Of a DNA stretch of 64,000 nt, positions 8,729 through 22,027 are shown in pieces. The stretch lies in assembly GCA_044229845.1 (NCBI GenBank), contig JBGASG010000009.1, positions 64,001 to 128,000 of the forward strand, given 5' to 3'. The notes beneath the pieces are model-generated. The model was not told the DNA's origin. It worked only from the letters and a program-made list of their open reading frames with translations, and made no database searches. Each line of letters opens with the position of its first letter. The first letter of the stretch is position 1. A program made the position numbers and the translations under genes. The DNA is from Candidatus Obscuribacteraceae bacterium (GTDB lineage: Bacteria > Cyanobacteriota > Vampirovibrionia > Obscuribacterales > Obscuribacteraceae).

Positions 8729-11700
8729 TTACTCCTCAATAGGTGCCAGCAGATATTTCAGATCGCGCTCTGTAAAGTGATTGGTCAGGGCACCAGTAGT
8801 AGTGCCCTTGTCATAAATGCCATCGGCAATCAGGCGTTTCTCTTCCTGGCGCTTAAGCATCTTTTCTTCGACAGTACCGGTGGTGATTAACCGATAGACG
8901 AACACCGGCTTATTCTGTCCGATGCGATGAGCGCGGTCGGTTGCCTGTTCTTCGACCGCCGGATTCCACCAGGGATCGTAGTGGATGACGGTATCGGCAG
9001 CAGTCAAGTTAAGACCTGTGCCACCGGCTTTGAGGCTGATCAAGAAAACGGGCGCTTTGCCGGCTTGAAACTGTTTCACTGGTGTTTTGCGGTCGGCAGT
9101 GCTGCCTCGCAGTTCCAGATATTTGATCTCCCTTGTTATCAGCTCCTCGGCAATCAAGTCGAGCATGCTGGTGAACTGAGAAAAGACGAGTACTCGTCGC
9201 CCTTCATCAACCAGTTGGGTGAGCATCTCCATCAGAACGGATAACTTTGCAGATTCGCCGACAGCTCGCGCTTCTTCGAGCTTTAACAGCCGCGGATCAC
9301 AGCACACCTGACGCAGCCGCATGAGTGCTTTCAGGATGACAATCTGACTGCGATTGATGCCTTTCTCTTCGACAACTTCGAGGACCCGTTTGTGCATGGC
9401 CAGTCGCACGGTTTCATACAGATCGCGCTGTCCGCCCTCCAGGGTAATGTTGCGGTGGATAACCGTCTTTGTGGGCAATTCTTCGCCGACTTCTGATTTG
9501 GTGCGGCGCAACAGGAACGGACGAATGCGAGCGGCGAGAAACGCCCGCATGTACGGGTCATTGAATTTTTCGATCGGCGTGCGAAAGACTCTGGTGAAGA
9601 TTTCGTGTGTGCTCAACAGCCCAGGCATCAGAAATGCGAATTGCGACCAGAGCTCGCCCAGATGATTCTGAACCGGAGTGCCGGTCATGCAGATGCGATG
9701 ATTCGCTTTCAGGCGCCGGCAGACGTCGGCAACTTGTGTCTGCCTGTTTTTGATCATCTGCGCTTCGTCCAGAATCACCATATGCCACTCGCGCAAAGTG
9801 AGCAGTGATGCATCGCGTTGCAATAATGGATAAGAGGTGAGAACAATATCTACGTCGTCGAGTTTGCTCTGGCGAGTAAATCGATCGTAATCTCGCAAAC
9901 ACACAACTCGCAGGTGCGGCACCATGCGTTGGGCTTCCTCAATCCAGTTGGGCAAAACACTGGTCGGGCAAACAACCAGGCAGGGGCGCTGCAGATGGTT
10001 GCTCTCATACTCCATCTGGATGTGCGCCAGTGCTTCGACAGTCTTGCCCAGCCCCATGTCGTCTGCAAGTATCCCGCCGATGTTATGCGAAGCGATAAAT
10101 TGCAGCCAGGCGACACCTTGTTTCTGGTAATCGCGAAGGGTGACGCCGAACTCATTCGGTGCGGCATGTGTTGGCCAATCGCTTCCTGCCTTCAACAATG
10201 AAGCGGCCAGAGCACGCAGGCGGTCACCGCCCTGGAAGGCGATCGGTTGTTCAGCTCCGAGCAACTGCACCAGTTGTCCGGCGCTAATCGGCATGCGTCC
10301 TTGGCGATTTACAGAACTTTCATCGAAAACTTCGATCAAAGTTTTGATCAGCGATTTGACGCGTGGAAACGGCAAAGAAAGTTTGGCGCCATCAGCCATG
10401 GTGACATAGAATCTGCCGCCCTGATTCATCGCCTCCAGAAAATTGTCGTCGATGACATCCATCGGTTCAAATCCGGCGCGGGCGTCGGACATATTATACG
10501 GAATGCTGCGCACCGCCTGCATAAGCAGCGGCAGCAACGAAACTTTTTCACCCCGGACATTGATGCCCAGGTCGACGCTGAACCATCCTTCTTCCTCGAC
10601 AATATCTCCTTGCCAGTCGTCATCATCTGGCATAACGACACGATCGTGAAAGGACTTGTCATAAATAATGTCCCAACCAAGCTTTTCGAGCCGCGGAATT
10701 TCCAGGGCAACAAAATCAGTCAGTTGACGCAACTGCGGCAGTATCAAGCAGAGCCCGTCATTTACGCGCGGGAAGTTGGCCATGGGCAGCTGCAATTCTT
10801 CGGTGAGCATCGAACTGAGCTCTCGCTCTGCTTTCAGGTTGCGGCGGTAAACGACGGTGCGCGAGGCACCGTTGATGGTGACATGGTTGCCGCTGTCTGT
10901 GGGATTGCAGCGCTTGTTGCCGTACTTCACCCAGTGAAAGGCGTAAGCTGCATCTTTCTGCACGCCGTTGTCGAATTTTGTGAGAAACAATACCGGCGTC
11001 GGCACCGCTTCTCTATGTTCGATGACGACCTGTTCTGACGGCAGCGGAATTTCCAGATCGGGCAATCGCTTTTGCAACAAATCGCGGGTGTATTTGGCTT
11101 GTTCTACATCCAGGCGCGGTCCAAACAAGATAGGTTCAACTAGATCTGCAGGGAAAGGCAATGTCAATCGCCCGGCGCAGCCGGTTTTTTCATCCACATA
11201 CCAGGGGCTGGGCGCCAGCAAGACTTGCGCTTCGTGCGTGGTGACGGTGGTGCGCTGGCGACCTTGCTCGTCGACTGCCCACACCAGTTCGCCCGGGCGG
11301 GCGTCACCCAGTGTGAGCGGCAACCCGTCTTTGGTGCGCCAGAAACAGCGCCCGGTCTTAATGACCGAGTTCAGCAAGAGGTCGATTAGTTCGGGTTCAG
11401 CTGTTTCAAATGAATAGTCCAGCCAGTATCCGGAGCGCATGCTGCCCAGAAGTGCGCCAATCATGCGGTCGGCGGCATCGAGAAAGCCGGCGCGACCGGT
11501 GGTCAAATCGTAGCGTTCTTCGCGTCCATATCCGCCGGCTTTCAGCTTGCTGGCGGCGATGGTTTCCAGTCTTAGATACGGTTTTTCGGCGGAGCCGGTG
11601 GTCACCAGATAGAGCAAAGTCTTGCTGTCTTTGAGCTTCTCTTTGCGGGTTACCGTCTCGTTGATCTTACAGAGGTCGGAAACCCATCCATCTATAAGAG

Positions 11701-12160
11701 GATGCACTTTGGCGGGTTGCTCTTGATCCGGAGGCGCGATTTCGCTGGGGGCAATTTCCTCGATGTCATCTTCGTCTTCGCCGGTGCGCTCGCGCAGCAC
11801 GTGATACAGCAGTGCTGCGCCGTGTTTGCAGGTGGTGCCGACCGGGCATTCGCAGCGGCAGTCGACGATGGAATTGGGGCGCCCGCCAGGCTTAATTTGC
11901 ACATAGGTGTCGTACTTGGTCGTGCCCTGCACGAGCCCGGATATGGCGCTCCAGTCGTCATTTATCGCGTATTCGAGAACTCTGAAGCCACGCGCGTAAT
12001 CAAAACCACGCTTCGCTGAGGCGACGCCGAAAAAATCTTCAATCTGCCAATCGGCGAAGGGGGAGCACTTCCGACACTGGCAACGACCATCCGGACACTC
12101 CAGATTGCGGGAGCGATTCTTCGGGGAATGGCTATTTCTTGGAGGTTTTATCTTTGCCAT
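8729..12160 (-). CDS. SWIM zinc finger + SNF2 family helicase/ATPase
   Basis: CECP...CKH SWIM motif; LADDMGLGKT, LDEAQ, TGTPVQN, QATDRAHRIGQ. Confidence 0.93.
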   Translation of the reverse strand: MAKIKPPRNSHSPKNRSRNLECPDGRCQCRKCSPFADWQIEDFFGVASAKRGFDYARGFRVLEYAINDDWSAISGLVQGTTKYDTYVQIKPGGRPNSIVDCRCECPVGTTCKHGAALLYHVLRERTGEDEDDIEEIAPSEIAPPDQEQPAKVHPLIDGWVSDLCKINETVTRKEKLKDSKTLLYLVTTGSAEKPYLRLETIAASKLKAGGYGREERYDLTTGRAGFLDAADRMIGALLGSMRSGYWLDYSFETAEPELIDLLLNSVIKTGRCFWRTKDGLPLTLGDARPGELVWAVDEQGRQRTTVTTHEAQVLLAPSPWYVDEKTGCAGRLTLPFPADLVEPILFGPRLDVEQAKYTRDLLQKRLPDLEIPLPSEQVVIEHREAVPTPVLFLTKFDNGVQKDAAYAFHWVKYGNKRCNPTDSGNHVTINGASRTVVYRRNLKAERELSSMLTEELQLPMANFPRVNDGLCLILPQLRQLTDFVALEIPRLEKLGWDIIYDKSFHDRVVMPDDDDWQGDIVEEEGWFSVDLGINVRGEKVSLLPLLMQAVRSIPYNMSDARAGFEPMDVIDDNFLEAMNQGGRFYVTMADGAKLSLPFPRVKSLIKTLIEVFDESSVNRQGRMPISAGQLVQLLGAEQPIAFQGGDRLRALAASLLKAGSDWPTHAAPNEFGVTLRDYQKQGVAWLQFIASHNIGGILADDMGLGKTVEALAHIQMEYESNHLQRPCLVVCPTSVLPNWIEEAQRMVPHLRVVCLRDYDRFTRQSKLDDVDIVLTSYPLLQRDASLLTLREWHMVILDEAQMIKNRQTQVADVCRRLKANHRICMTGTPVQNHLGELWSQFAFLMPGLLSTHEIFTRVFRTPIEKFNDPYMRAFLAARIRPFLLRRTKSEVGEELPTKTVIHRNITLEGGQRDLYETVRLAMHKRVLEVVEEKGINRSQIVILKALMRLRQVCCDPRLLKLEEARAVGESAKLSVLMEMLTQLVDEGRRVLVFSQFTSMLDLIAEELITREIKYLELRGSTADRKTPVKQFQAGKAPVFLISLKAGGTGLNLTAADTVIHYDPWWNPAVEEQATDRAHRIGQNKPVFVYRLITTGTVEEKMLKRQEEKRLIADGIYDKGTTTGALTNHFTERDLKYLLAPIEE

Positions 12161-12274: not shown

Positions 12275-12370
12275 ATGTCAGAGAAAAAACGCGTGGAGTC
12301 GCGCCTGTCAGTGATCGTTGGATTTAATCATCATCACCACCATCACCTGGTCCTCAACGGAGCGGACTGA
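12275..12370 (+). CDS. hisL: Histidine operon leader peptide (MSEKKRVESRLSVIVGFNHHHHHHLVLNGAD; alternative GTG starts at 12293 and 12311)
   Basis: Six consecutive His codons (CAT CAT CAC CAC CAT CAC) in a short ORF just upstream of a terminator and hisG. Confidence 0.85.
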   Translation: MSEKKRVESRLSVIVGFNHHHHHHLVLNGAD

Positions 12371-12408
12371 CAGACAGCCACGTATTCATTTTCTTGCTAA
12401 CTGTCTTC

Positions 12409-12441
12409 AAGCCCGCCCATAAAGCGGGTCTTTTTGTGTTT
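12409..12441 (+). terminator. Attenuator terminator of the his leader
   Basis: GCCCGC-ccataaa-GCGGGT stem followed by CTTTTTGTGTTT. Upstream AGACAG/CTGTCT stem, and GCGG (12362) can pair with CCGC of the terminator 5' arm. Confidence 0.8.
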
Positions 12442-12457
12442 CCACAGGAATTTATCC

Positions 12458-13387
12458 ATGTCTAGCAATCAGAAATTGACGAATTCGCCTTCCGCACAAG
12501 AGCAGGCATCAGCCGACAACGGCGCCGCGGCGCTGCGACTGACCATTCCCACCGGACGCATTCAGGAGAAAGTGCTCGGGTTGCTGGATGCAATCGGCGT
12601 CAAAATGGCCAAGGACGGCAGATCTTACAAGCCGACGTGTTCTGAGAACGGCATTGAAATAAAGATGCTGAAAGCTCAGAACATCCCCAATCTGGTGGCG
12701 CTCGGACGACATGATTGCGGGTTTTCCGGCTACGACTGGATCACTGAGCAGCGCGCCGATGTGGTCGAACTTCTCGACCTGGAATTCGACCCCGTGCGCA
12801 TAGTTGCTGCTGTGCCCGAATATCTGGCGGAGAACGACCTGTATAAAACGATCGATCGCCAACTGGTTGTGGCCTCGGAATATCGGCAGCTTTCCACCGA
12901 TTTCATCGCTCGCAATAAACTGAACGCCGTGTTCTTGCAGACTTTCGGTGCCACCGAAGCGTTGCCGCCGGAAGATGCGGATATCATCGTCGACAATACC
13001 GCCACCGGTACCACGCTGCGTCACAACCGCCTGGTAGAAATCGAAGTGTTGATGCGGTCGACCACCAGGTTCATTTGCAATCGCGAGGCTTACGAGAACA
13101 AAGAAAAACGCCGCAAGCTCGATGAGCTGACGATGCTCATGCAGGCTTCTTTGCGCGCGCGCGACAAGGTCTTGCTGGAAATGAACGTCGCTCGTGAAGA
13201 CTTCGAGCGTCTGGTGGGAGACTTGCCCTGTATGCGGGCACCGACAATTTCCGAACTGTACAACGGTGACGGCTACGCCGTCAAAATCGCCGTTTCGTCC
13301 AGAGATGTTCCGACTCTGATACCAAAACTGGTGGCACTGGGGGCGCGGGACATTCTCGAATACAAACTGCAGAAGATTGTGATTTAA
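12458..13387 (+). CDS. hisG: ATP phosphoribosyltransferase, long form
   Basis: P.GRI, DCGFSGYDW, GATE..PP..ADIIVD...TGTTLRHNRL; C-terminal regulatory domain (PTISEL, GARDILEY). Confidence 0.93.
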   Translation: MSSNQKLTNSPSAQEQASADNGAAALRLTIPTGRIQEKVLGLLDAIGVKMAKDGRSYKPTCSENGIEIKMLKAQNIPNLVALGRHDCGFSGYDWITEQRADVVELLDLEFDPVRIVAAVPEYLAENDLYKTIDRQLVVASEYRQLSTDFIARNKLNAVFLQTFGATEALPPEDADIIVDNTATGTTLRHNRLVEIEVLMRSTTRFICNREAYENKEKRRKLDELTMLMQASLRARDKVLLEMNVAREDFERLVGDLPCMRAPTISELYNGDGYAVKIAVSSRDVPTLIPKLVALGARDILEYKLQKIVI

Positions 13388-13408
13388 CTGAAGGCACCCG
13401 GGAAGTCG

Positions 13409-14047
13409 ATGAATATTTCGCCCGCGATACCATCCAGAGCACAAGCTGCCGCTTGCGAAGTCGACCTGGTCGATGTAGGCGGTGGCAACATCGGCAGCGT
13501 GCGCCGCTGCCTGCACAGGCTGGGTATCACCTATCGCGATGTCGGTGCCGATAATCTACCGGGCGGCTCGCGTCCATTGATCTTGCCTGGGGTCGGTGCA
13601 TTCGGCACCGTTATGGACAGCTTGCGAAGAAACGGTTTGGACGAAAGCATAAAAAATTTGGTGGCCAAGGGTACACCACTGCTGGGTGTTTGCGTCGGAA
13701 TGCAGGTTCTGTTCGACAGCAGCGAAGAAGCACCGGGCGTGCCGGGACTGTCGCTGGTGCCAGGGAAAGTGGTGCGCTTCGTGGCTGACAAAGTGCCGCA
13801 GATCGGGTGGAATCATATCGATGCGAAGCAGTCAGGCTGGGAAGGCGGCTATGTCTATTTTGTCAACTCTTTCTATGCACAACCCGAAAACGATAACGTG
13901 GTGCTATACCAGGCGCAGTATGGCGACACGGAATTCTGTGCCGCGCTGCGGACTGGAAACATAACCGCCTTTCAGTTTCATCCTGAAAAAAGTAGTGCCT
14001 TTGGTGCCAGTTTGCTTGCGAGGTGGATAGCCAGTGTCACTCTGTAA
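13409..14047 (+). CDS. hisH: Imidazole glycerol phosphate synthase glutaminase subunit
   Basis: [34 protein letters not shown]. Confidence 0.95.
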
Positions 14048-14798
14048 GCGCATCATTCCCTGCCTTGACGTAGCCAACGGCATGACCGTGAAAGGTGTGA
14101 AGTTCACCAATCTGCGAACCATCGGCGACCCCGTCGAACTGGGCTTGATCTACGAAGAACAAGGCGCCGACGAACTGACGTTTCTCGACATATCTGCATC
14201 GTCCGAAGAGCGAGCGACCGTCGTCGAGCTGGTCGAGCGCGTCGCCGACAATCTCTCGATTCCATTTACAGTCGGCGGCGGCATCACCACAGCCGCTGAT
14301 GCGAAAAAACTTTTGAGCAGTGGTGCCGACAAGGTTTCGATCAACACTGCGGCGGTGCAGCGGCCGGAACTGATCGGCGAGATTTCCTCTGCCTGGGGCT
14401 CGCAGTGCTGCGTGGTGGCAATCGATGCACGGGCTGCGGCGTCTCCCGGCACGTGGGAAGTACTGATCAAGGGCGGTCGCGTGGCGACCGGACGTGATGC
14501 TTTCCAGTGGGCTCAGGAATGTGTTGAGCGCGGCGCCGGCGAGATACTTCTGACGTCGTGGGATCGTGACGGCACCTTATCTGGTTTCGACCTGGAGATG
14601 GTGCGCACCTTCGCGCGCAATCTGCCGGTGCCGGTGATTGCGTCGGGCGGTGCTCGCGACCCGGAGAGTTTCGTCGACGTGTTCAAGGAAGCCAGCGCTG
14701 ATGCCGCCCTGGCAGCAAGTATTTTTCACGATGGCACCTACACCATCGCTCAGGTCAAAGAGCGTTTGCGCGCAGCAGGAGTACCAGCAAGGCTATGA
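14034..14798 (+). CDS. hisF: Imidazole glycerol phosphate synthase cyclase subunit
   Basis: [42 protein letters not shown]. Confidence 0.96.
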
Positions 14799-16036
14799 TT
14801 GTTCCCAGCATCGATATTATCGGCGGAAAAGCGGTGCAACTTCGCCAGGGCAAGGAGTTTGTCCTGGAGAGCGAGCGCGATCCGGTAGACCTGGCCCGTG
14901 AATTCAATCGATACGGTGAAGTGGCGGTGATCGATCTTGATTCCGCCATGGGCAAAGGCAACAATCGCGAATTGATTGAGCGCATTTGCAAAGTTGCCGA
15001 TGTCCGAGTCGGTGGCGGCATCCGCGATGTAGAAACGGGACGCGCATTGCTGCGTGCCGGGGCCAAGTCACTGATTGTCGGAACCAAAGCTACTCCCGAG
15101 TTTCTCAGCCAGTTTCCTGCAGACCGCATTATTGTGGCGCTCGATCATGTCAACGAAGAAGTTGTCGATAAGGGATGGACCAATTCTACCGGTGAATCGA
15201 TTTGGGATCGGGCCGGCAGGCTGGAACCATATTGCAGTGGGTTTCTGGTCACGTTTGTGGAAGCAGAGGGTGGATTGGGTGGACTGCCCGCCTCAGCAGC
15301 AGCAAGCCTCCTGGAGAAACTGAAAAGGCATGTCACCGTTGCCGGTGGCATCGCTTCCACGACGGAAGTAGCCGATATCTCGGCGCTGGGTGCAGACGTG
15401 CAGGTGGGCATGGCCCTATATAAAGGATTAGTCGATCCGGTCGAGGCGGTCGTGCAGAGTGTCAACTTCGACACCAACGGCACCGGTGTCGTGCCCACGG
15501 TCGTTCAGGACATGAACGGACAGGTTTTGATGCTGGCATATAGCTCACCGGAGTCGTTGCGGCGAGCACTTAAAGAGGGCAAGGGCATCTATTACAGCCG
15601 TTCTCGCCAGGAGATATGGGAGAAGGGATTGACTTCGGGTGCGACGCAGCAGCTGGTTTCTTGCCGGGTAGATTGCGATCGCGACAGTCTCCTGTTCCGC
15701 ATCGAGCAAACCGAGGGCGCCTGCCACCGGGGTTCCTACAGCTGCTTCGGGCAAGCAACGGCTGCCAGGCAGTTCTCCGTCGGACAGTTGTTCAGCATTC
15801 TGCAGCAGCGGAAGCAGGAGATGCCGGAAGGTTCTTATTCGGCAACGCTATTTAAAGACCGGCGTAAGTTGCTGAAGAAACTGATGGAAGAAGCGCACGA
15901 GGTCTGCACCTTCGAGTCTACCGAAAATTTGCGCTGGGAGATTGCCGATTTGATCTACTTCGCCAGTTTGCTGGCAGTGGATGAAGGTGTGTCGTGGGCT
16001 GACATCGAATGCGAACTGGGAGGTCGTGCCAAGTGA
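14795..16036 (+). CDS. hisA-hisIE: Fusion of HisA-like TIM barrel, phosphoribosyl-AMP cyclohydrolase (HisI) and phosphoribosyl-ATP pyrophosphatase (HisE)
   Basis: N-term [30 protein letters not shown]; His[28 protein letters not shown]; HisE SY...[16 protein letters not shown]. Confidence 0.88.
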
Positions 16037-17307
16037 CGCAAATGAGCAGATCTGTATTCGAACGAGTCGAGGGCGAGTCGGATGTCTCCGATATCGCCAA
16101 GCGAGTGGCTCAGATTTCCGTCTCTGCCATCAAGCAAATGCCGGTGCTGGCCGCCAGGGTCGGCGGGTGCGTATCGCTGGGGCAGGGCATCCCGTCTTTG
16201 AATACGCCGGAGTTTATTCGCCGCGCCGTCATCGAAGAGCTGCAAAATCCGTCGACAGCGATCGGCAAGTATTCTATTCAGCCAGGTTTGCCGGAGTTGA
16301 AACAAGAAATCGCCCGCGACTTGAAGCGAACTCGCGGTGTGGCGAATGTGGACCACGAGAAGGAGATATTTGTCAGTTGTGGTGGCATGGAGGCGCTCGC
16401 CGCCGGCATCGCTACCATTGTGGAACGTGACGATGAGGTGATTTTGCCGTCGCCCACCTACGCTTCCCATATTGAACAAGTGCTCTTTGCTGAAGGCGTA
16501 CCGCGATTCGTACCTCTGGTTGAAGATCAGGGATGGAAACTGGACATTGAGGCAATCAGAAAAGCAGTCTCGAAGAAAACCAAAGCGATCATTCTCTGCA
16601 ATCCGGTCAACCCGACAGGCACCGTATTCAGTGAGAGCGAATTGAACGAAGTCGCCAAGATCGTGTTGGAGAACGATTTGTTTCTTATCCTCGATGAAGC
16701 CTACGATTTCCTGGTCTACGACGGTCTGCCGTTCTACAGTTTGATGTCGCGCGTCGATCTGAAGGAGAATGTCATCGCTGTCTGCAGTTTCTCCAAGCGG
16801 TATTGCATGACCGGCTGGCGAGTCGGTTTCATGTACGCTCCAGAGCGCATTATTCGTCAGGTCTTGAAAGTGCATGATGCGTTTGCCATCTGTGCTCCGA
16901 CGATATCGCAGTTCGCTGCTCTGGCGGCGCTACGTGCCACCAATGGCGTCGACGGCGAAGGAGACCGCAGCGTTCAGCAACTTGTCGATGCGCTCGGGCG
17001 CAGACGAGACCTGGTGTGTTCGCGACTGGAACGGCTGACCGAAATCTTTTCCTATGTCAAACCGGTGGGCGGATACTACGTCTTCCCCCGGTTCAATGCG
17101 GCGGTGAAGGCAGCTTCCTCCGATTTAGAGTCTTCCATTGATTTCACGCTGCGCATATTGAATGAAGCAAAAGTGATCACCATTCCGGGGAGTGCATTTG
17201 GACCCACCGGCGAGAATCATATACGAATGTCTTTCGGTGCCGACGAAGCCGAGCTGACTGAAGCCTTTGACCGACTCGATACTTACTTTGCAGGGAGAAA
17301 ATCATGA
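16033..17307 (+). CDS. PLP-dependent class I/II aminotransferase (AspC/PatA-like), candidate histidinol-phosphate aminotransferase by position (start GTG 16033 or ATG 16042)
   Basis: SLGQGIP, CNPVNPTG, DEAY, SFSKRYCMTGWRVG; 4-nt overlaps with both neighbours. Confidence 0.85.
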   Translation: MTQMSRSVFERVEGESDVSDIAKRVAQISVSAIKQMPVLAARVGGCVSLGQGIPSLNTPEFIRRAVIEELQNPSTAIGKYSIQPGLPELKQEIARDLKRTRGVANVDHEKEIFVSCGGMEALAAGIATIVERDDEVILPSPTYASHIEQVLFAEGVPRFVPLVEDQGWKLDIEAIRKAVSKKTKAIILCNPVNPTGTVFSESELNEVAKIVLENDLFLILDEAYDFLVYDGLPFYSLMSRVDLKENVIAVCSFSKRYCMTGWRVGFMYAPERIIRQVLKVHDAFAICAPTISQFAALAALRATNGVDGEGDRSVQQLVDALGRRRDLVCSRLERLTEIFSYVKPVGGYYVFPRFNAAVKAASSDLESSIDFTLRILNEAKVITIPGSAFGPTGENHIRMSFGADEAELTEAFDRLDTYFAGRKS

Positions 17308-18626
17308 TTCGCACGTTCCAACTGAATTCCATGTCGAAACAGGACCGGGATAAGGTCATGAAACGCGCACATGAGGATATCGACAGCGTCAAGCCGAAGG
17401 TCGAGCAGATTATTCAAGCCGTGCGCAGCGAAGGCGATGCGGCGCTGGTGCGTTTCACGAAAGAATGGGATGACCCTGAGTACACCGCAGACCGCCTGGT
17501 GGTGACCGAAGCCGATATTGACGAAGCCTATAAGAACACCAGCAAAGAAACGCTGGAACGCATCCGCGAACAAATCTCCCTGTCGAAGCGATTTCATGAA
17601 CTGCAGCGACAGCAAGTCCCGGAATGGGAAAACGAGATGGAGAATGGCATCGTTGTCGGCGAGAAGTGGACTCCACTGTCCGATGTCGGGCTGTATGTGC
17701 CTGGTGGAAAAAATCCGTTTCCGACTGTGCAGCAAATTCTGGCGGTGGCAGCCAAGGCTGCGGGCTGCCCGCGCATAGTTTCGTGCATCTCGCCGCGAGG
17801 CAAGGGCTATGAGGTGTTGATTGCGGCGCGGGAGTGCGGCGTCACGGAGATATATCGGGTTGGTGGAGCACAAGCGATTGCCGCTCTTGCCTATGGAACA
17901 GAGACTATCAAGCCGGTATTGCTGATTGCCGGACCGGGAAATCCGTTTGTCACCGCTGCCAAGATTCTTTGTCAGTCGAAGGTGTCCATCGATATGCCGG
18001 CTGGACCAAGTGAGGCGATTGTGCTCGCCGATGGCACCACGCCGGAAGGACTGGATTTGCCGACCAAGGCGACTTATTGTGCGGCCGACTTGCTGGCGCG
18101 TGCGGAGCACGGACCGGATTCCGCCGGTGTGCTGCTCACTGATTCCGCGGAGCTTGCCGAGCTGACCGAGAAGGAAATCGAGAAGCAGTACAAAACTCTG
18201 TCGAGGCAAGACTATATTAAGAAGGCACTGGAGACCTACAGCGCAATTATTGTGGTGCCCTCCATGAAGGAGGCGGTTGACTTCACCAACGAGTACGCGC
18301 CTGAACACCTCGAAATACTAACGGAGGATCCCGATGCCACATTGAAGGGCATTGAGAATGCCGGGTCGGCTTTCCTTGGCTATTACAATCCGGTTGCTAC
18401 CGGTGACTACGCTACCGGCATCAACCACGTGCTGCCGTCGTGCGGATGGGCGAGGCAGACATCTCCGGTTGGTGTGTGGACCTTCATGAAGCGTGTGCAA
18501 TACTCAACCGTCAGCAAGAGTGGACTGGACAGGCTGCGACCGATTGTTCAGACAATTGCCACCGTGGAAGGATTGGATGCGCACCGTCGCAGCGTTGAAG
18601 TGCGCTTTGAGAAACAGAATGTCTGA
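17304..18626 (+). CDS. hisD: Histidinol dehydrogenase (divergent)
   Basis: GLYVPGG, VGGAQAIAALAYGTE, GPGN, IDMPAGPSE, APEHL, GDY, NHVLP, EGLDAH. Confidence 0.92.
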   Translation: MIRTFQLNSMSKQDRDKVMKRAHEDIDSVKPKVEQIIQAVRSEGDAALVRFTKEWDDPEYTADRLVVTEADIDEAYKNTSKETLERIREQISLSKRFHELQRQQVPEWENEMENGIVVGEKWTPLSDVGLYVPGGKNPFPTVQQILAVAAKAAGCPRIVSCISPRGKGYEVLIAARECGVTEIYRVGGAQAIAALAYGTETIKPVLLIAGPGNPFVTAAKILCQSKVSIDMPAGPSEAIVLADGTTPEGLDLPTKATYCAADLLARAEHGPDSAGVLLTDSAELAELTEKEIEKQYKTLSRQDYIKKALETYSAIIVVPSMKEAVDFTNEYAPEHLEILTEDPDATLKGIENAGSAFLGYYNPVATGDYATGINHVLPSCGWARQTSPVGVWTFMKRVQYSTVSKSGLDRLRPIVQTIATVEGLDAHRRSVEVRFEKQNV

Positions 18627-19923
18627 GACTGATGTGGATGATGCGGCTCAGCTGCGTTTGATCGATATTCAGAAACTGCAGTTTGCCGATCGTGTCGGCG
18701 CGGAGCAGGCTTTGCTGGCATTCTTGAAAAAGAGTGAGGATGCCGCAATCACTAGGGTTGAGTTGCGTCCAAAACCGGAATCGCTCAATTCGATCAATGG
18801 CTTTGTCACCTTCGGCGAGAGCGAGCGTTATTTCTTCAAGATGCACGTCGAGGAAAACGAGCGTCTCAGTGAATATTACAACGCAAAGACGCTGGCTGAT
18901 GCCGGGTATCCCGTGGTGACGGCGAAGCAAATCTCGCATCGCCCTGGCAAGCAACTTGTGCTTTACGAGATCATTGAGTTCGCTACTTTGTTTGATGTGG
19001 CGAAGGAGGCGGAGGACGAGTTGCTGCAGGCGCGTGACGTGTCGAACTTTGATGCCATCGTTGCCGCACAAAATCAGTTGGACGCGATTACAAGCTCGAT
19101 ATACGCAAAGACTCTCGCGCAGACTCCGGAAACCGAAGATCTGCCCGCGCCGATTCATCAATTGTTTTCACATCGTCTGGCAGAAGATGGACGGCTGCGA
19201 TTGTTTTATCGTGGTAAGACCATGAAGACAGAATCTGGCACCCCGATCGCTTTTGATGAACTGGCAAACATGCATTGGGTGATCAATGGGGTTCGCCACG
19301 GAGAGACTTTGAACGAGATCATCGAGCGGGCGCAAATTCAGCTGGCACCATCGGCGGGACCATCGGTGATCGGACACGGCGATGCACACAATGGAAATGT
19401 ATTCTTCGATCCCGTCGAAAATAGTTTGTTGATGTTTGATCCAGCGTTCGCAGGCCGACATCACCCGCTGTTGGATCTCACCAAACCGCTCTTCCATAAC
19501 GTCTTCGCTCGCTGGATGTATTACCCGTCCGAGGTTGACAAAGAATTTAGCCTCGCTATGGTGATGGACAAGGGTGTAATCGAGATTACTCACAATTTCG
19601 AGATCTCAGGACTGCGCAAGGCATTCCTGGAATCAAAGCTGAAATACGTCCTGCGTCCGACGCTCAAGCTGCTGCACGAGCAGGGGATGCTGCGCGGCGA
19701 CTGGCAAACTTATTTGAGATCATCGCTGTTTTGCTGTCCGTTTTTGACGGTCAACCATTTCGCTCCTTATAAGGCTGACGGAACTCTGTCCGAGCGCTAC
19801 TCCTTCTGGGTGCGCATGCTCGGGTTGTCCATGTCGGTGGAGTTGGGTTCGGGATACCGTGAGGGTAGCAACGGCATGACCGACCTGCTTGACCGTATCC
19901 TCGATTTTCCGTTTGCTGGATAA
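18619..19923 (+). CDS. Unknown protein with APH/choline-kinase-like motifs, translationally coupled to hisD
   Basis: ATG 18619 overlaps the hisD stop by 8 nt. SLNSING, YFFKMH, IGHGDAHNGNVF (Brenner HxDxxxxN), MFDPAFAG. Confidence 0.75.
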   Translation: MSETDVDDAAQLRLIDIQKLQFADRVGAEQALLAFLKKSEDAAITRVELRPKPESLNSINGFVTFGESERYFFKMHVEENERLSEYYNAKTLADAGYPVVTAKQISHRPGKQLVLYEIIEFATLFDVAKEAEDELLQARDVSNFDAIVAAQNQLDAITSSIYAKTLAQTPETEDLPAPIHQLFSHRLAEDGRLRLFYRGKTMKTESGTPIAFDELANMHWVINGVRHGETLNEIIERAQIQLAPSAGPSVIGHGDAHNGNVFFDPVENSLLMFDPAFAGRHHPLLDLTKPLFHNVFARWMYYPSEVDKEFSLAMVMDKGVIEITHNFEISGLRKAFLESKLKYVLRPTLKLLHEQGMLRGDWQTYLRSSLFCCPFLTVNHFAPYKADGTLSERYSFWVRMLGLSMSVELGSGYREGSNGMTDLLDRILDFPFAG

Positions 19924-20012
19924 GGTTTGTCCCTGCATGTCTGGACAACCGGCAGTCGCTGGTCGAAAATGTGCGTCTGACGCATTAGGCGTTGTCAAGC
20001 TTTGATTGCCAA

Positions 20013-21290
20013 ATGGAACATCGCCCAACCCTAAATCTGCTATTGCTCGATGTGGACGGAGTCCTTGTGGAACCGCTCGCTTATCGCCAGTGCATCGTCA
20101 AGACGCTGGAGATTTTAGGCAGGCAAGTGGGGCTCCGCAATCTCGAAGATGTGATGCCGACGGAATCCGACATCGCGCATATGGAAGCCTGTGGCATTCA
20201 TGATGTCTGGGATATGACCAATATCCTGTTCAGCGCGATTTTGGAGCGGATCACATTCCATCTGACCGGCACTGAGGCTCACGAGAAGAGCTTGAGCGAC
20301 CGCCTGGAGGGACTGGAGACTATCAACCAGCGCCTGACTGTTTTTCAAAAAACGCCGCTGGTTATCCAGAAACCCGGCTACACAGAAATAGCCACCGAGT
20401 TAATGAAGCGATTGCCGGCACACCCGCCTGATATCGCGTTGCAGATGGTCGAGGCGCAGATTCGCAAACAGTTTGCTGCCAGAGCCTTGATTTATTCCCT
20501 GTTGGAAATTCACAAAGCTTTCCTGATGGGAACGCGTTCTGTGTATGAGAGCTATGGCACAGGGCTTTTTCAAAACATTCTCCTTGGCAAGGATGAGTTT
20601 GAGAAGACCTACAATCTGCACAGCGAGTACAACGAGGAGCCACTGCTTCGCGTTGCTGACAAAGCGCTGATTTCTCAGCAGTCGGTTGCCATGCTGCAAC
20701 TTTTGAATGAACGCCCTGATTGCCGCGCGGCGATCTATACGGCACGTCCGAGTTTGCCCCCACCGTCGGAAGAAGCGACCGAAGGCTTCTCTCCGGAAGC
20801 GGAGATTGCGCTGGATCTGTGTGGTATGAAGGGCTTTCCCCTGGTGGGGATGGGCATGATGCAATGGCTTGCTGCCAGAACTAATTGCCGGACGGAAGAC
20901 CTGACGAAACCAAATACCACGCAAGCGCTGGCGGCATTGGCGGCGGCGATCTATCAGCAAAACGATATCGATTTATTGGAGGCGGCGTACAGAGTCGACC
21001 GCGAGGGCGAAAATCCGCACGAGCACCTGCTTGCGAATCTGGCTGAGACACCGATTCGGATCTATGTATTCGAGGACACAGTGTCAGGGATCAATCCGAT
21101 GCTGAAGGTTGCCCAGAAACTGCAGGGCGATGGATTTTCTGTGAGTGTTACCCCGATGGGTATCGCACAGCAGAAGAGCAAGCACCAGGCACTATCCATG
21201 GTGACCAAGCATGTGTTTGGCAATGTGGATTTTGCATTGCGGTTTGCCTCTCACGATATGAATACTGCAGCGAGCAGCGGGGCTCTCTAG
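20013..21290 (+). CDS. HAD-superfamily hydrolase with large cap, candidate histidinol-phosphatase
   Basis: LLLDVDGV (motif I), YTAR (motif II), TKP (motif III), VFEDTVSG (motif IV); last co-oriented gene after the his genes. Confidence 0.7.
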
Positions 21291-22027
21291 GATAGGGACT
21301 GCCCGGTTTTGGGCTTGGGCTTAGGCATTTCGTCCCAAGTGCGACCTTCGAGCAGTCGACCGGCGGCTTTCTTATTGCGACCGCCCCACTGTTTGAAGAA
21401 GAAAGCGACGTTTTGTTCTTTGCACTGATCGCGAATGGTGGTTACCCAATCCTTATCTATGGGGCGGGAACGATGGCCGGATTCGCCACCGACAATCACC
21501 CAGTCGATGCCGGTGAGATCGAGGTTGTCTCCGAGCGGACCAATTAATGGCTCGATGGAGAGAAACTTGGTGTGAGCCCGCGTACGTCGCAAATGATCGA
21601 TGCGGTATTTGTAGTCGGCGTTTTCTACGCTTACCCCCTGCCAGATATGGGGGCACCAGGGCAGGATGGGATCAATCTCTTCGAGACGTTCCGCGCGTTT
21701 CGTGAGGATTTGGAACGTGTGCCATTTTGCTTGCTTCATCACCTGGAAGATTTTCAGAATAAATTCTTGCGGCACATCCTTGTGGTAGAGGTCGCTCATC
21801 GAGTTCACGAAGATGCGCTTGGGCTTCCGCCAGGAAAGTGGTAGCTCCAGGCGATTGGGCCACATTTTTAGATCGAATCCTTGTTCATAAGGATGGTCTG
21901 GAACTCCACGAAAGCGTTCCGCGAAAGTCTCCGCATAGCAGTTTGCGCAACCCGGACTGATCTTGTGGCACCCGGTGATTGGGTTCCACGTGGCGTCGGT
22001 CCATTCAATGCTGGAGTTATCACTCAT
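21287..22027 (-). CDS. DUF5131 (phage Gp37/Gp68) family radical-SAM-like protein
   Basis: [61 protein letters not shown]. Confidence 0.9.

Follow-up and report, generated by a model that had tools for sequence, protein, structure and literature searches.

The window analysed here, a 64,000-nt stretch of the genome of Candidatus Obscuribacteraceae bacterium, contains a histidine (his) operon in which the gene for the imidazole glycerol phosphate (IGP) dehydratase HisB is missing. The genome under study (G000; a 5.16-Mb assembly, 88% complete) carries the operon on contig C14. On one strand, a leader peptide with a run of histidine codons and a terminator-like hairpin are followed by hisG, hisH, hisF, a HisA-HisI-HisE fusion, an aminotransferase gene (AT), hisD, a gene for a kinase-fold protein (KIN) and a gene for a predicted HAD-family phosphatase (HAD; Table 1). 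The gene set and order given in a first-pass annotation of the window were confirmed by matches to the family models. The chain of overlapping genes that it described from hisH to the kinase gene is mostly present, except for a 5-nt gap between the triple fusion and AT when the latter is started at 16042, where its homologues begin.

Table 1. Features of the his operon (window positions) and the plasmid-borne clusters that contain KIN homologues (positions within each locus)
Feature	Position	Strand	Evidence
Leader peptide, 31 codons, six consecutive His codons (attenuator)	12275..12370	+	open reading frame read
Intrinsic terminator-like hairpin, then T run	12411..12429	+	terminator scan
hisG, long form	12458..13387	+	TIGR00070, TIGR03455 over cut-off
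hisH	13409..14047	+	TIGR01855 over cut-off
hisF	14034..14798	+	TIGR00735 over cut-off
HisA-HisI-HisE triple fusion	14795..16036	+	PF00977, PF01502, PF01503
AT, class I pyridoxal-phosphate aminotransferase, aromatic/aspartate type	16042..17307	+	PF00155
HisD*, variant HisD	17304..18626	+	TIGR00069; zinc-ligand Gln replaced by Arg266
KIN, APH / methylthioribose-kinase fold	18619..19923	+	PF01636 over cut-off, E 2e-7
HAD, large-cap HAD phosphatase (predicted)	20013..21290	+	motifs, fold of 1QYI
Plasmid clusters	L057 2370-13278; L058 2435-14437; L207 6653-17352; L056 11992-20387; L206 105-7054		

Absence of HisB and distribution of KIN

The first-pass annotation found no IGP dehydratase in the window, and the same holds for the whole genome. 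The HisB model PF00475 gave no match in G000 at E<=10, and a profile built from 17 HisB proteins, run against 42,166 six-frame segments of G000, reached a best E of only 0.48; these sensitive searches for a divergent HisB covered G000 only. KIN, HAD and AT themselves lack a PF00475 match with the two HHxxE motifs.

Among 83 genomes of the family, each at least 80% complete, HisB was found in 46 and HisD in 56. Twelve genomes have HisD without HisB, and all twelve possess KIN (ten by search, two in fetched loci). HAD is present in exactly the 12 genomes that carry KIN and in none of the 46 with HisB, while KIN is absent from all 43 HisB-containing family genomes searched and three further HisB-containing genomes fall outside that sample. 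AT was detected in 11 of the 83 genomes, ten of them with KIN and none among the 46 with HisB. Eight sister operons that do contain hisB show an identical scaffold, most of them with a small HAD and HisC that are often fused; KIN, HAD and AT occupy the place of the hisB, hisC and small HAD genes of these operons.

A similar exclusion was observed in the Chloroflexota, where KIN occurs in 34 of 401 genomes (a tally that includes the unpublished genome G598, which entered no other count) and PF00475 has no match in any of the 33 KIN-bearing genomes tested (32 plus G008). Within the class of G008, 84 of 101 genomes match PF00475, and G008 does not. In many Chloroflexota genomes HAD and KIN are fused into one protein whose gene lies after hisG and before hisH, in the hisB slot; other fusions join KIN to a different small HAD or have the reverse order. 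A KIN profile search retrieved 540 clusters at E<=0.001. For the locus scan a narrower alignment (A4) was used, since the broader one (A3) was too diverse. Among 80 metagenome loci with KIN, a his gene was found within 2.5 kb in 71; hisD was present in 52 and hisB in a single locus. Across the loci, KIN and an altered HisD form the constant core, usually accompanied by some HAD. KIN is the sole non-canonical gene shared by all lineages that lack HisB; its HAD partner, where the locus has one, comes from either of two subfamilies, and the aminotransferase is not constant either. Both the avoidance of hisB and the linkage to his genes that the first-pass annotation had anticipated for homologues of the extra genes were thus upheld, the former in the family and the Chloroflexota, the latter in the metagenome loci. 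The HisB-free arrangement is real and extends beyond this operon, and its distribution makes it very probable that the KIN family replaces the HisB step.

A few KIN loci are unusual. G697 has a second copy without his genes nearby (L174 8150-9358), and G259, a genome with 7% contamination, contains a duplicate hisD-KIN pair at a contig end (L054). In the cyanobacterium G937 a cassette of hisD*, KIN, HAD and a hisC-like gene (L212 5984-11338) coexists with canonical hisB and hisD genes. Five distant homologues (P0357, P0358, P0359, P0364 and P0382) have an N-terminal region of at least 300 residues in front of the KIN part, for which no clear Pfam match was found. Fusions were also observed around HisC: in canonical Obscuribacteraceae operons HisC is fused to a small HAD (L042 4615-6303, L046, L048 and L049), and in a HisB-containing relative a 682-residue open reading frame matches both HisG and HisC, an apparent HisG-HisC fusion (L045 11646-13694).

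The kinase-fold protein and the altered HisD

The predicted model of KIN (pLDDT 91) falls within the APH / small-molecule kinase superfamily in fold searches (Foldseek, VIA), with 2OLC as the best match (Z 16.3, root-mean-square deviation 6.2, 324 residues aligned). KIN shares both the fold and the conserved catalytic residues of the methylthioribose kinase / APH / choline kinase superfamily (PF01636). These residues are intact (K74, E85, H253-x-D255-x-H257-x-x-N260 and D274), and we take them to be the catalytic Lys, the Glu, the catalytic HxDxxxxN motif and the metal-binding Asp. Across 75 diverse homologues H253, D255 and N260 are invariant and K74, E85 and D274 are kept in at least 90%. 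Unlike the superfamily in general, KIN has no solved sequence relative (best E 0.1 in a sequence search of the PDB) and possesses invariant residues of its own, R186, R192, H257 and K289.

Two fold neighbours suggest what such a protein might do in place of a dehydratase: the lanthipeptide dehydratase LxmKY (PDB 9DK1, Z 15.8), which reportedly dehydrates through a phosphoester, and the 25-hydroxysteroid kinase of Sterolibacterium (PDB 9FSG, Z 13.4). For the latter, the source describes dehydration through a phosphoester, the elimination requiring a separate lyase (PMC8449060). Identity to KIN is about 9% in both cases and the substrates are different; moreover, both systems use a separate lyase, whereas none is evident here. 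Both serve as a precedent for a dehydration driven by a kinase.

The first-pass annotation took hisD to be canonical, which proved not to be the case. HisD* passes TIGR00069 comfortably (449 bits, cut-off 244), yet in an alignment to solved HisD it has Arg266 at the position of the axial zinc-ligand Gln, the other catalytic and zinc residues being retained (H269, E334, H335, D368, H375, E422 and H427). According to PMC5585171, that Gln coordinates the zinc once the substrate has bound. The 64 HisD sequences from KIN-bearing loci (one cassette counted twice) comprise 18 with Arg, 46 with Glu and none with Gln at this position; most copies of the Glu type also show a change of the zinc Asp to Asn and of a His to Ala. 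Canonical HisD from HisB-containing genomes has Gln in 27 of 27 cases.

A quick tree groups the Arg clade with the Glu clade as its sister (SH-aLRT 98); within the former, Gln was regained at least three times. Two of these regains, in G055 and G185, are found in operons with hisB and hisC; the third is that of P0479 and P0481-P0483. Of the columns invariant in the Arg clade (128 rows), Arg266 alone differs in every one of the 10 revertant rows, which represent 8 distinct proteins. Contig-length matching, a proxy for linkage only, gave 44 of 44 for Arg and 0 of 8 for Gln. G055 and G185 had first suggested that HisD of this clade can work alongside HisB as it is, a view that was dropped after the switch between Arg and Gln had been seen. 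HisD* is the sole HisD in all four HisB-lacking Chloroflexota genomes checked, and in G937 the canonical HisD is kept while the KIN cassette carries its own Glu-type copy. The KIN tree clusters with HisD type; related proteins share these labels, and the pattern was hence not counted as proof of co-evolution.

If a replacement of HisB by KIN always requires an altered HisD, then the substrate of HisD probably differs and with it the order of the reactions. The altered HisD lends real support to the suggestion in the first-pass annotation of other intermediates or another step order, the re-ordered route itself being about evenly balanced between true and false. Arg-type HisD is also found in Woesearchaeota, Peregrinibacteria and Gottesmanbacteria (P0477, P0517 and P0525), and the route may therefore reach the archaea and the candidate phyla radiation.

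Aminotransferase, phosphatase and the order of the late steps

AT is a clear member of PF00155 (E 2.5e-66), in which the pyridoxal-phosphate lysine (K252) and the carboxylate-binding arginine (R395) are present. Its closest solved relative is the aromatic aminotransferase of Pyrococcus horikoshii (1GD9/1DJU, E 6e-70), from which it differs in being bound to the operon and confined to KIN-bearing relatives (10 of 11 hits). On the HisC model TIGR01141 it scores 122 bits, far under the cut-off of 276.55, and is still the best HisC match in G000. These matches suggest an aminotransferase of the aromatic keto-acid type rather than HisC, for which we propose imidazole pyruvate as the substrate. An orthology of AT with the aminotransferase of a Rhizobium cluster was rejected (33 bits).

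In other lineages KIN is found together with genes of the HisC family. The HisC-like genes of three cyanobacteria-like cassettes lack Tyr20 and Arg322, and the two rhizobial copies have Lys at that place. In PMC4703992 the Arg that matches Arg322 holds the phosphate, although an Arg is retained there in the aromatic enzyme as well. No HisC match was found in 6 of 21 KIN-bearing genomes outside the family sample.

The HAD protein has the motif residues D13-x-D15, T243, K299 and E354-D355, of which D13, D15, E354 and D355 are invariant and T243 and K299 are kept in at least 90%. Its fold is that of the uncharacterised Staphylococcus aureus protein 1QYI (E 1.5e-9). None of the curated HisN, HisB-N or HisJ models matched it over cut-off, the only hit being TIGR01548 (E 0.0035, 17 of 140 bits). 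The known histidinol-phosphatase families are covered in PMC10804674. The earlier statement that none of them is present agrees with these searches and with the lack of a PHP-type HisJ over cut-off in G000; it needs qualification in that an IMPase-family gene elsewhere in the genome (G000:C2:50040-50795) is a candidate, scoring 207 bits against the 275-bit cut-off of the HisN model.

Distant homologues of KIN (about 31-37% identity among the matches listed) occur on 106 plasmid records, mostly from Sinorhizobium and Rhizobium, whose hosts presumably have a chromosomal hisB. Five plasmid clusters, from Sinorhizobium pSymA, Shinella, Rhizobium, Paroceanicella and Klebsiella, were read; a sixth region proved fragmented. 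In all five, genes for an importer and an SDR protein accompany KIN and a HisD* of the Glu type. A Zn-dehydrogenase and a HutC-like/UTRA regulator are each present in four, an alpha-hydroxy-acid oxidase and an aminotransferase each in three, and no annotated phosphatase lies within any of the five. This make-up fits a substrate that is taken up without a phosphate group and a pathway that ends in a keto acid, and the clusters likely represent a salvage route for an imidazole polyol. For one gene of this group, SMa0392, the accessible part of PMC8844928 gives no substrate.

These clusters resemble the HpsN-HpsO-HpsP dihydroxypropanesulfonate system of Cupriavidus, in which the gene for a HisD-fold diol oxidiser is likewise clustered with those for a transporter, a regulator and two further oxidoreductases. 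HpsN oxidises a diol to the hydroxy acid and keeps the Gln, according to PMC11382572. It has a G-R-Y-A/S-H motif ending in His126, whereas HisD* lacks both the Gln and this motif and has no His at that place. On the other hand, HisD* keeps the imidazole-binding Glu, and the HpsN system is without a kinase.

Taken together, the gene content, the folds, the intact active-site motifs, the avoidance of HisB and the joint change of HisD and KIN are best accommodated by the following scheme, in which we infer every substrate and the order of the steps. The early genes would produce IGP as usual, after which HAD would dephosphorylate it to imidazole glycerol. HisD* would oxidise the primary alcohol twice with NAD+, as HpsN does with its diol, yielding imidazole glycerate. 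KIN would then phosphorylate the ring-adjacent hydroxyl with ATP, and elimination of the phosphate would give imidazole pyruvate, to be aminated by AT to L-histidine. As a variant, the second and third steps may be swapped, with oxidation triggering the elimination. We consider it an open balance, neither side prevailing, whether the operon makes histidine without HisB by such a re-ordered late route, and judge in the same way that amination comes last through imidazole pyruvate; the exact order HAD, HisD*, KIN, AT is put forward only tentatively. Amination as the last step is favoured because AT is of the aromatic type, because some HisC-like proteins lack the phosphate-site residues and some KIN-bearing genomes have no HisC, and because of the make-up of the plasmid clusters.

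Upstream of the structural genes both parts of a His-leader attenuator are present, namely a short open reading frame with a His run and a terminator downstream of it. The scan found 3 terminator-like sites (0.4 expected). A His-run leader precedes 15 of 20 related his loci, canonical operons among them. The leader gave a weak match to the Rfam Trp_leader family (E 0.054, under the gathering score), and for the fold of the whole leader, in which a competing antiterminator was sought, z was -0.57, the alternative pairings being ambiguous. The HisA-HisI-HisE fusion is common to both operon types in the Obscuribacteraceae, including the canonical sister operons. The flanking genes have no apparent link to the pathway: a SWIM-SNF2 helicase gene (8729-12160, minus strand) is divergent from the leader, and a DUF5131 gene (21287-22027, minus strand) converges on HAD with a 4-nt overlap. 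A second hisH/hisF-like pair, perhaps of the sugar-amidation type, is located at G000:C5:38377-39776.

Alternative explanations and significance

Several observations weigh against a re-ordered route, or reduce the weight of the evidence for it. All 10 close KIN-bearing relatives tested, and 13 of the 21 other KIN-bearing genomes, possess a separate gene of the HisC family that scores over the cut-off. The absence of HisC from G000 is probably an assembly gap, because the genome is 88% complete, all ten relatives have the gene, and the 4-kb region around it in a genome of the same genus is without a blastn match in G000; a biological absence was rejected on these grounds. The stand-alone HisC-family gene is retained in four of five relatives without HisD and is therefore not specific to histidine; it looks like a housekeeping gene, but could serve histidine. 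The first-pass proposal that three extra genes fill three slots is borne out by their position in the scaffold, but it is weakened by the absence of AT from the operon in 4 of 10 loci (L010, L014, L015 and L016), by the HisC-family gene elsewhere in close relatives and by the pairing of KIN with such genes in other lineages. In L016 a HisN-like IMPase gene adjoins the cassette (265 of 275 bits). Since HpsN oxidises a diol and yet keeps the Gln, the loss of this residue is not simply a switch from an amine to a hydroxyl substrate. No lyase comparable to that of the 25-hydroxysteroid system is visible. KIN and HisB occur together in the 99% complete genome of the cyanobacterium G937, and on contig L109 an intact hisB directly follows a Glu-type hisD (a long branch in the tree) with KIN beside both; a loss of the phosphate site in this HisB was considered and rejected, as the site is intact. 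Finally, the counts overstate the number of independent cases because the genomes are related within each lineage and are mostly metagenome-assembled.

Some of these points fit a strong rival, which we regard as possible though doubtful, in which KIN would be an ATP-dependent IGP dehydratase that delivers imidazole acetol phosphate, AT or HisC would transaminate it, HAD would act as the histidinol phosphatase and HisD* would oxidise histidinol. The HAD-KIN fusion in the hisB slot then mirrors bifunctional HisB, the hisD-KIN-HAD-hisC cassettes hold exactly the four late genes, and the invariant R186, R192 and K289 could hold the phosphate of IGP. Four KIN loci (L083, L085, L086 and L091) carry a HisC with both phosphate-site residues intact, a further point against amination last, and L109 pairs its Glu-type HisD with an intact HisB. 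Left unexplained are the loss of the zinc Gln wherever KIN occurs and its regain when hisB returns, the separate HisD* copies of the cassettes, and the importer clusters without a phosphatase.

Rather unlikely is a role of KIN as a simple salvage enzyme that phosphorylates imidazole glycerol, imidazole acetol or histidinol, the dehydration being left to HAD, the pyridoxal-phosphate enzyme or an unlinked gene. Every characterised neighbour in fold is a plain kinase, G937 and L109 each combine KIN with a HisB, and the importer clusters and plasmid records agree with such a role; against it, only KIN is shared by all HisB-lacking lineages, whereas the HAD and the aminotransferase vary. That a HisB was missed, being unassembled or too divergent for PF00475, seems very improbable: G000 is incomplete and does lose a gene that its relatives keep, but the absence recurs in 12 family and 33 Chloroflexota genomes, as opposed to presence in 46 of 83 and 84 of 101 neighbours, the operon is contiguous, and even a weak match is lacking in G000. 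Least credible of all is that the late genes make another imidazole product and histidine is imported. The altered HisD, the non-HisC aminotransferase and the accessory cassettes in HisB-containing genomes would suit such a role, but the His-codon attenuator is common to canonical operons, and HisD* is the only HisD in the HisB-lacking Chloroflexota checked.

The operon thus shares with the canonical late pathway (HisB/IGPD, PF00475; HisC, TIGR01141; HisN, HisJ or HisB-N; HisD) its early genes, His leader and scaffold, and also the use of a HisD-fold enzyme, a HAD and a pyridoxal-phosphate aminotransferase. It differs in that an APH-fold protein stands in place of the IGPD fold with its HHxxE motifs, HisD lacks the zinc Gln and AT is not HisC. 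To our knowledge, the late pathway is regarded as a single, conserved sequence of steps in which HisB alone acts as a dehydratase. No description of a KIN-based, HisB-free system was found in the full-text literature, a coverage that mostly excludes subscription journals, and the accessible text parts of GapMind 2026 (PMC13759103) and a term search of its six supplements contain no mention of it; a prior published description may exist.

If KIN, a non-homologous, ATP-using protein, replaces HisB, it would represent a new enzyme activity, and a route with amination as the last step would define an alternative histidine pathway. Functions could then be assigned to the KIN family of kinases, which comprises several hundred clusters, as well as to a family of large-cap HAD proteins and a mis-annotated subfamily of HisD, and the orphan hisD/hisC cluster on Sinorhizobium pSymA would be explained. 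Auxotrophy calls for genomes that lack hisB would need correction. With roughly equal weight for and against, this would be a second histidine route, the main one in some Vampirovibrionia and Chloroflexota, whose core may have been reused on rhizobial plasmids for the salvage of an imidazole polyol.

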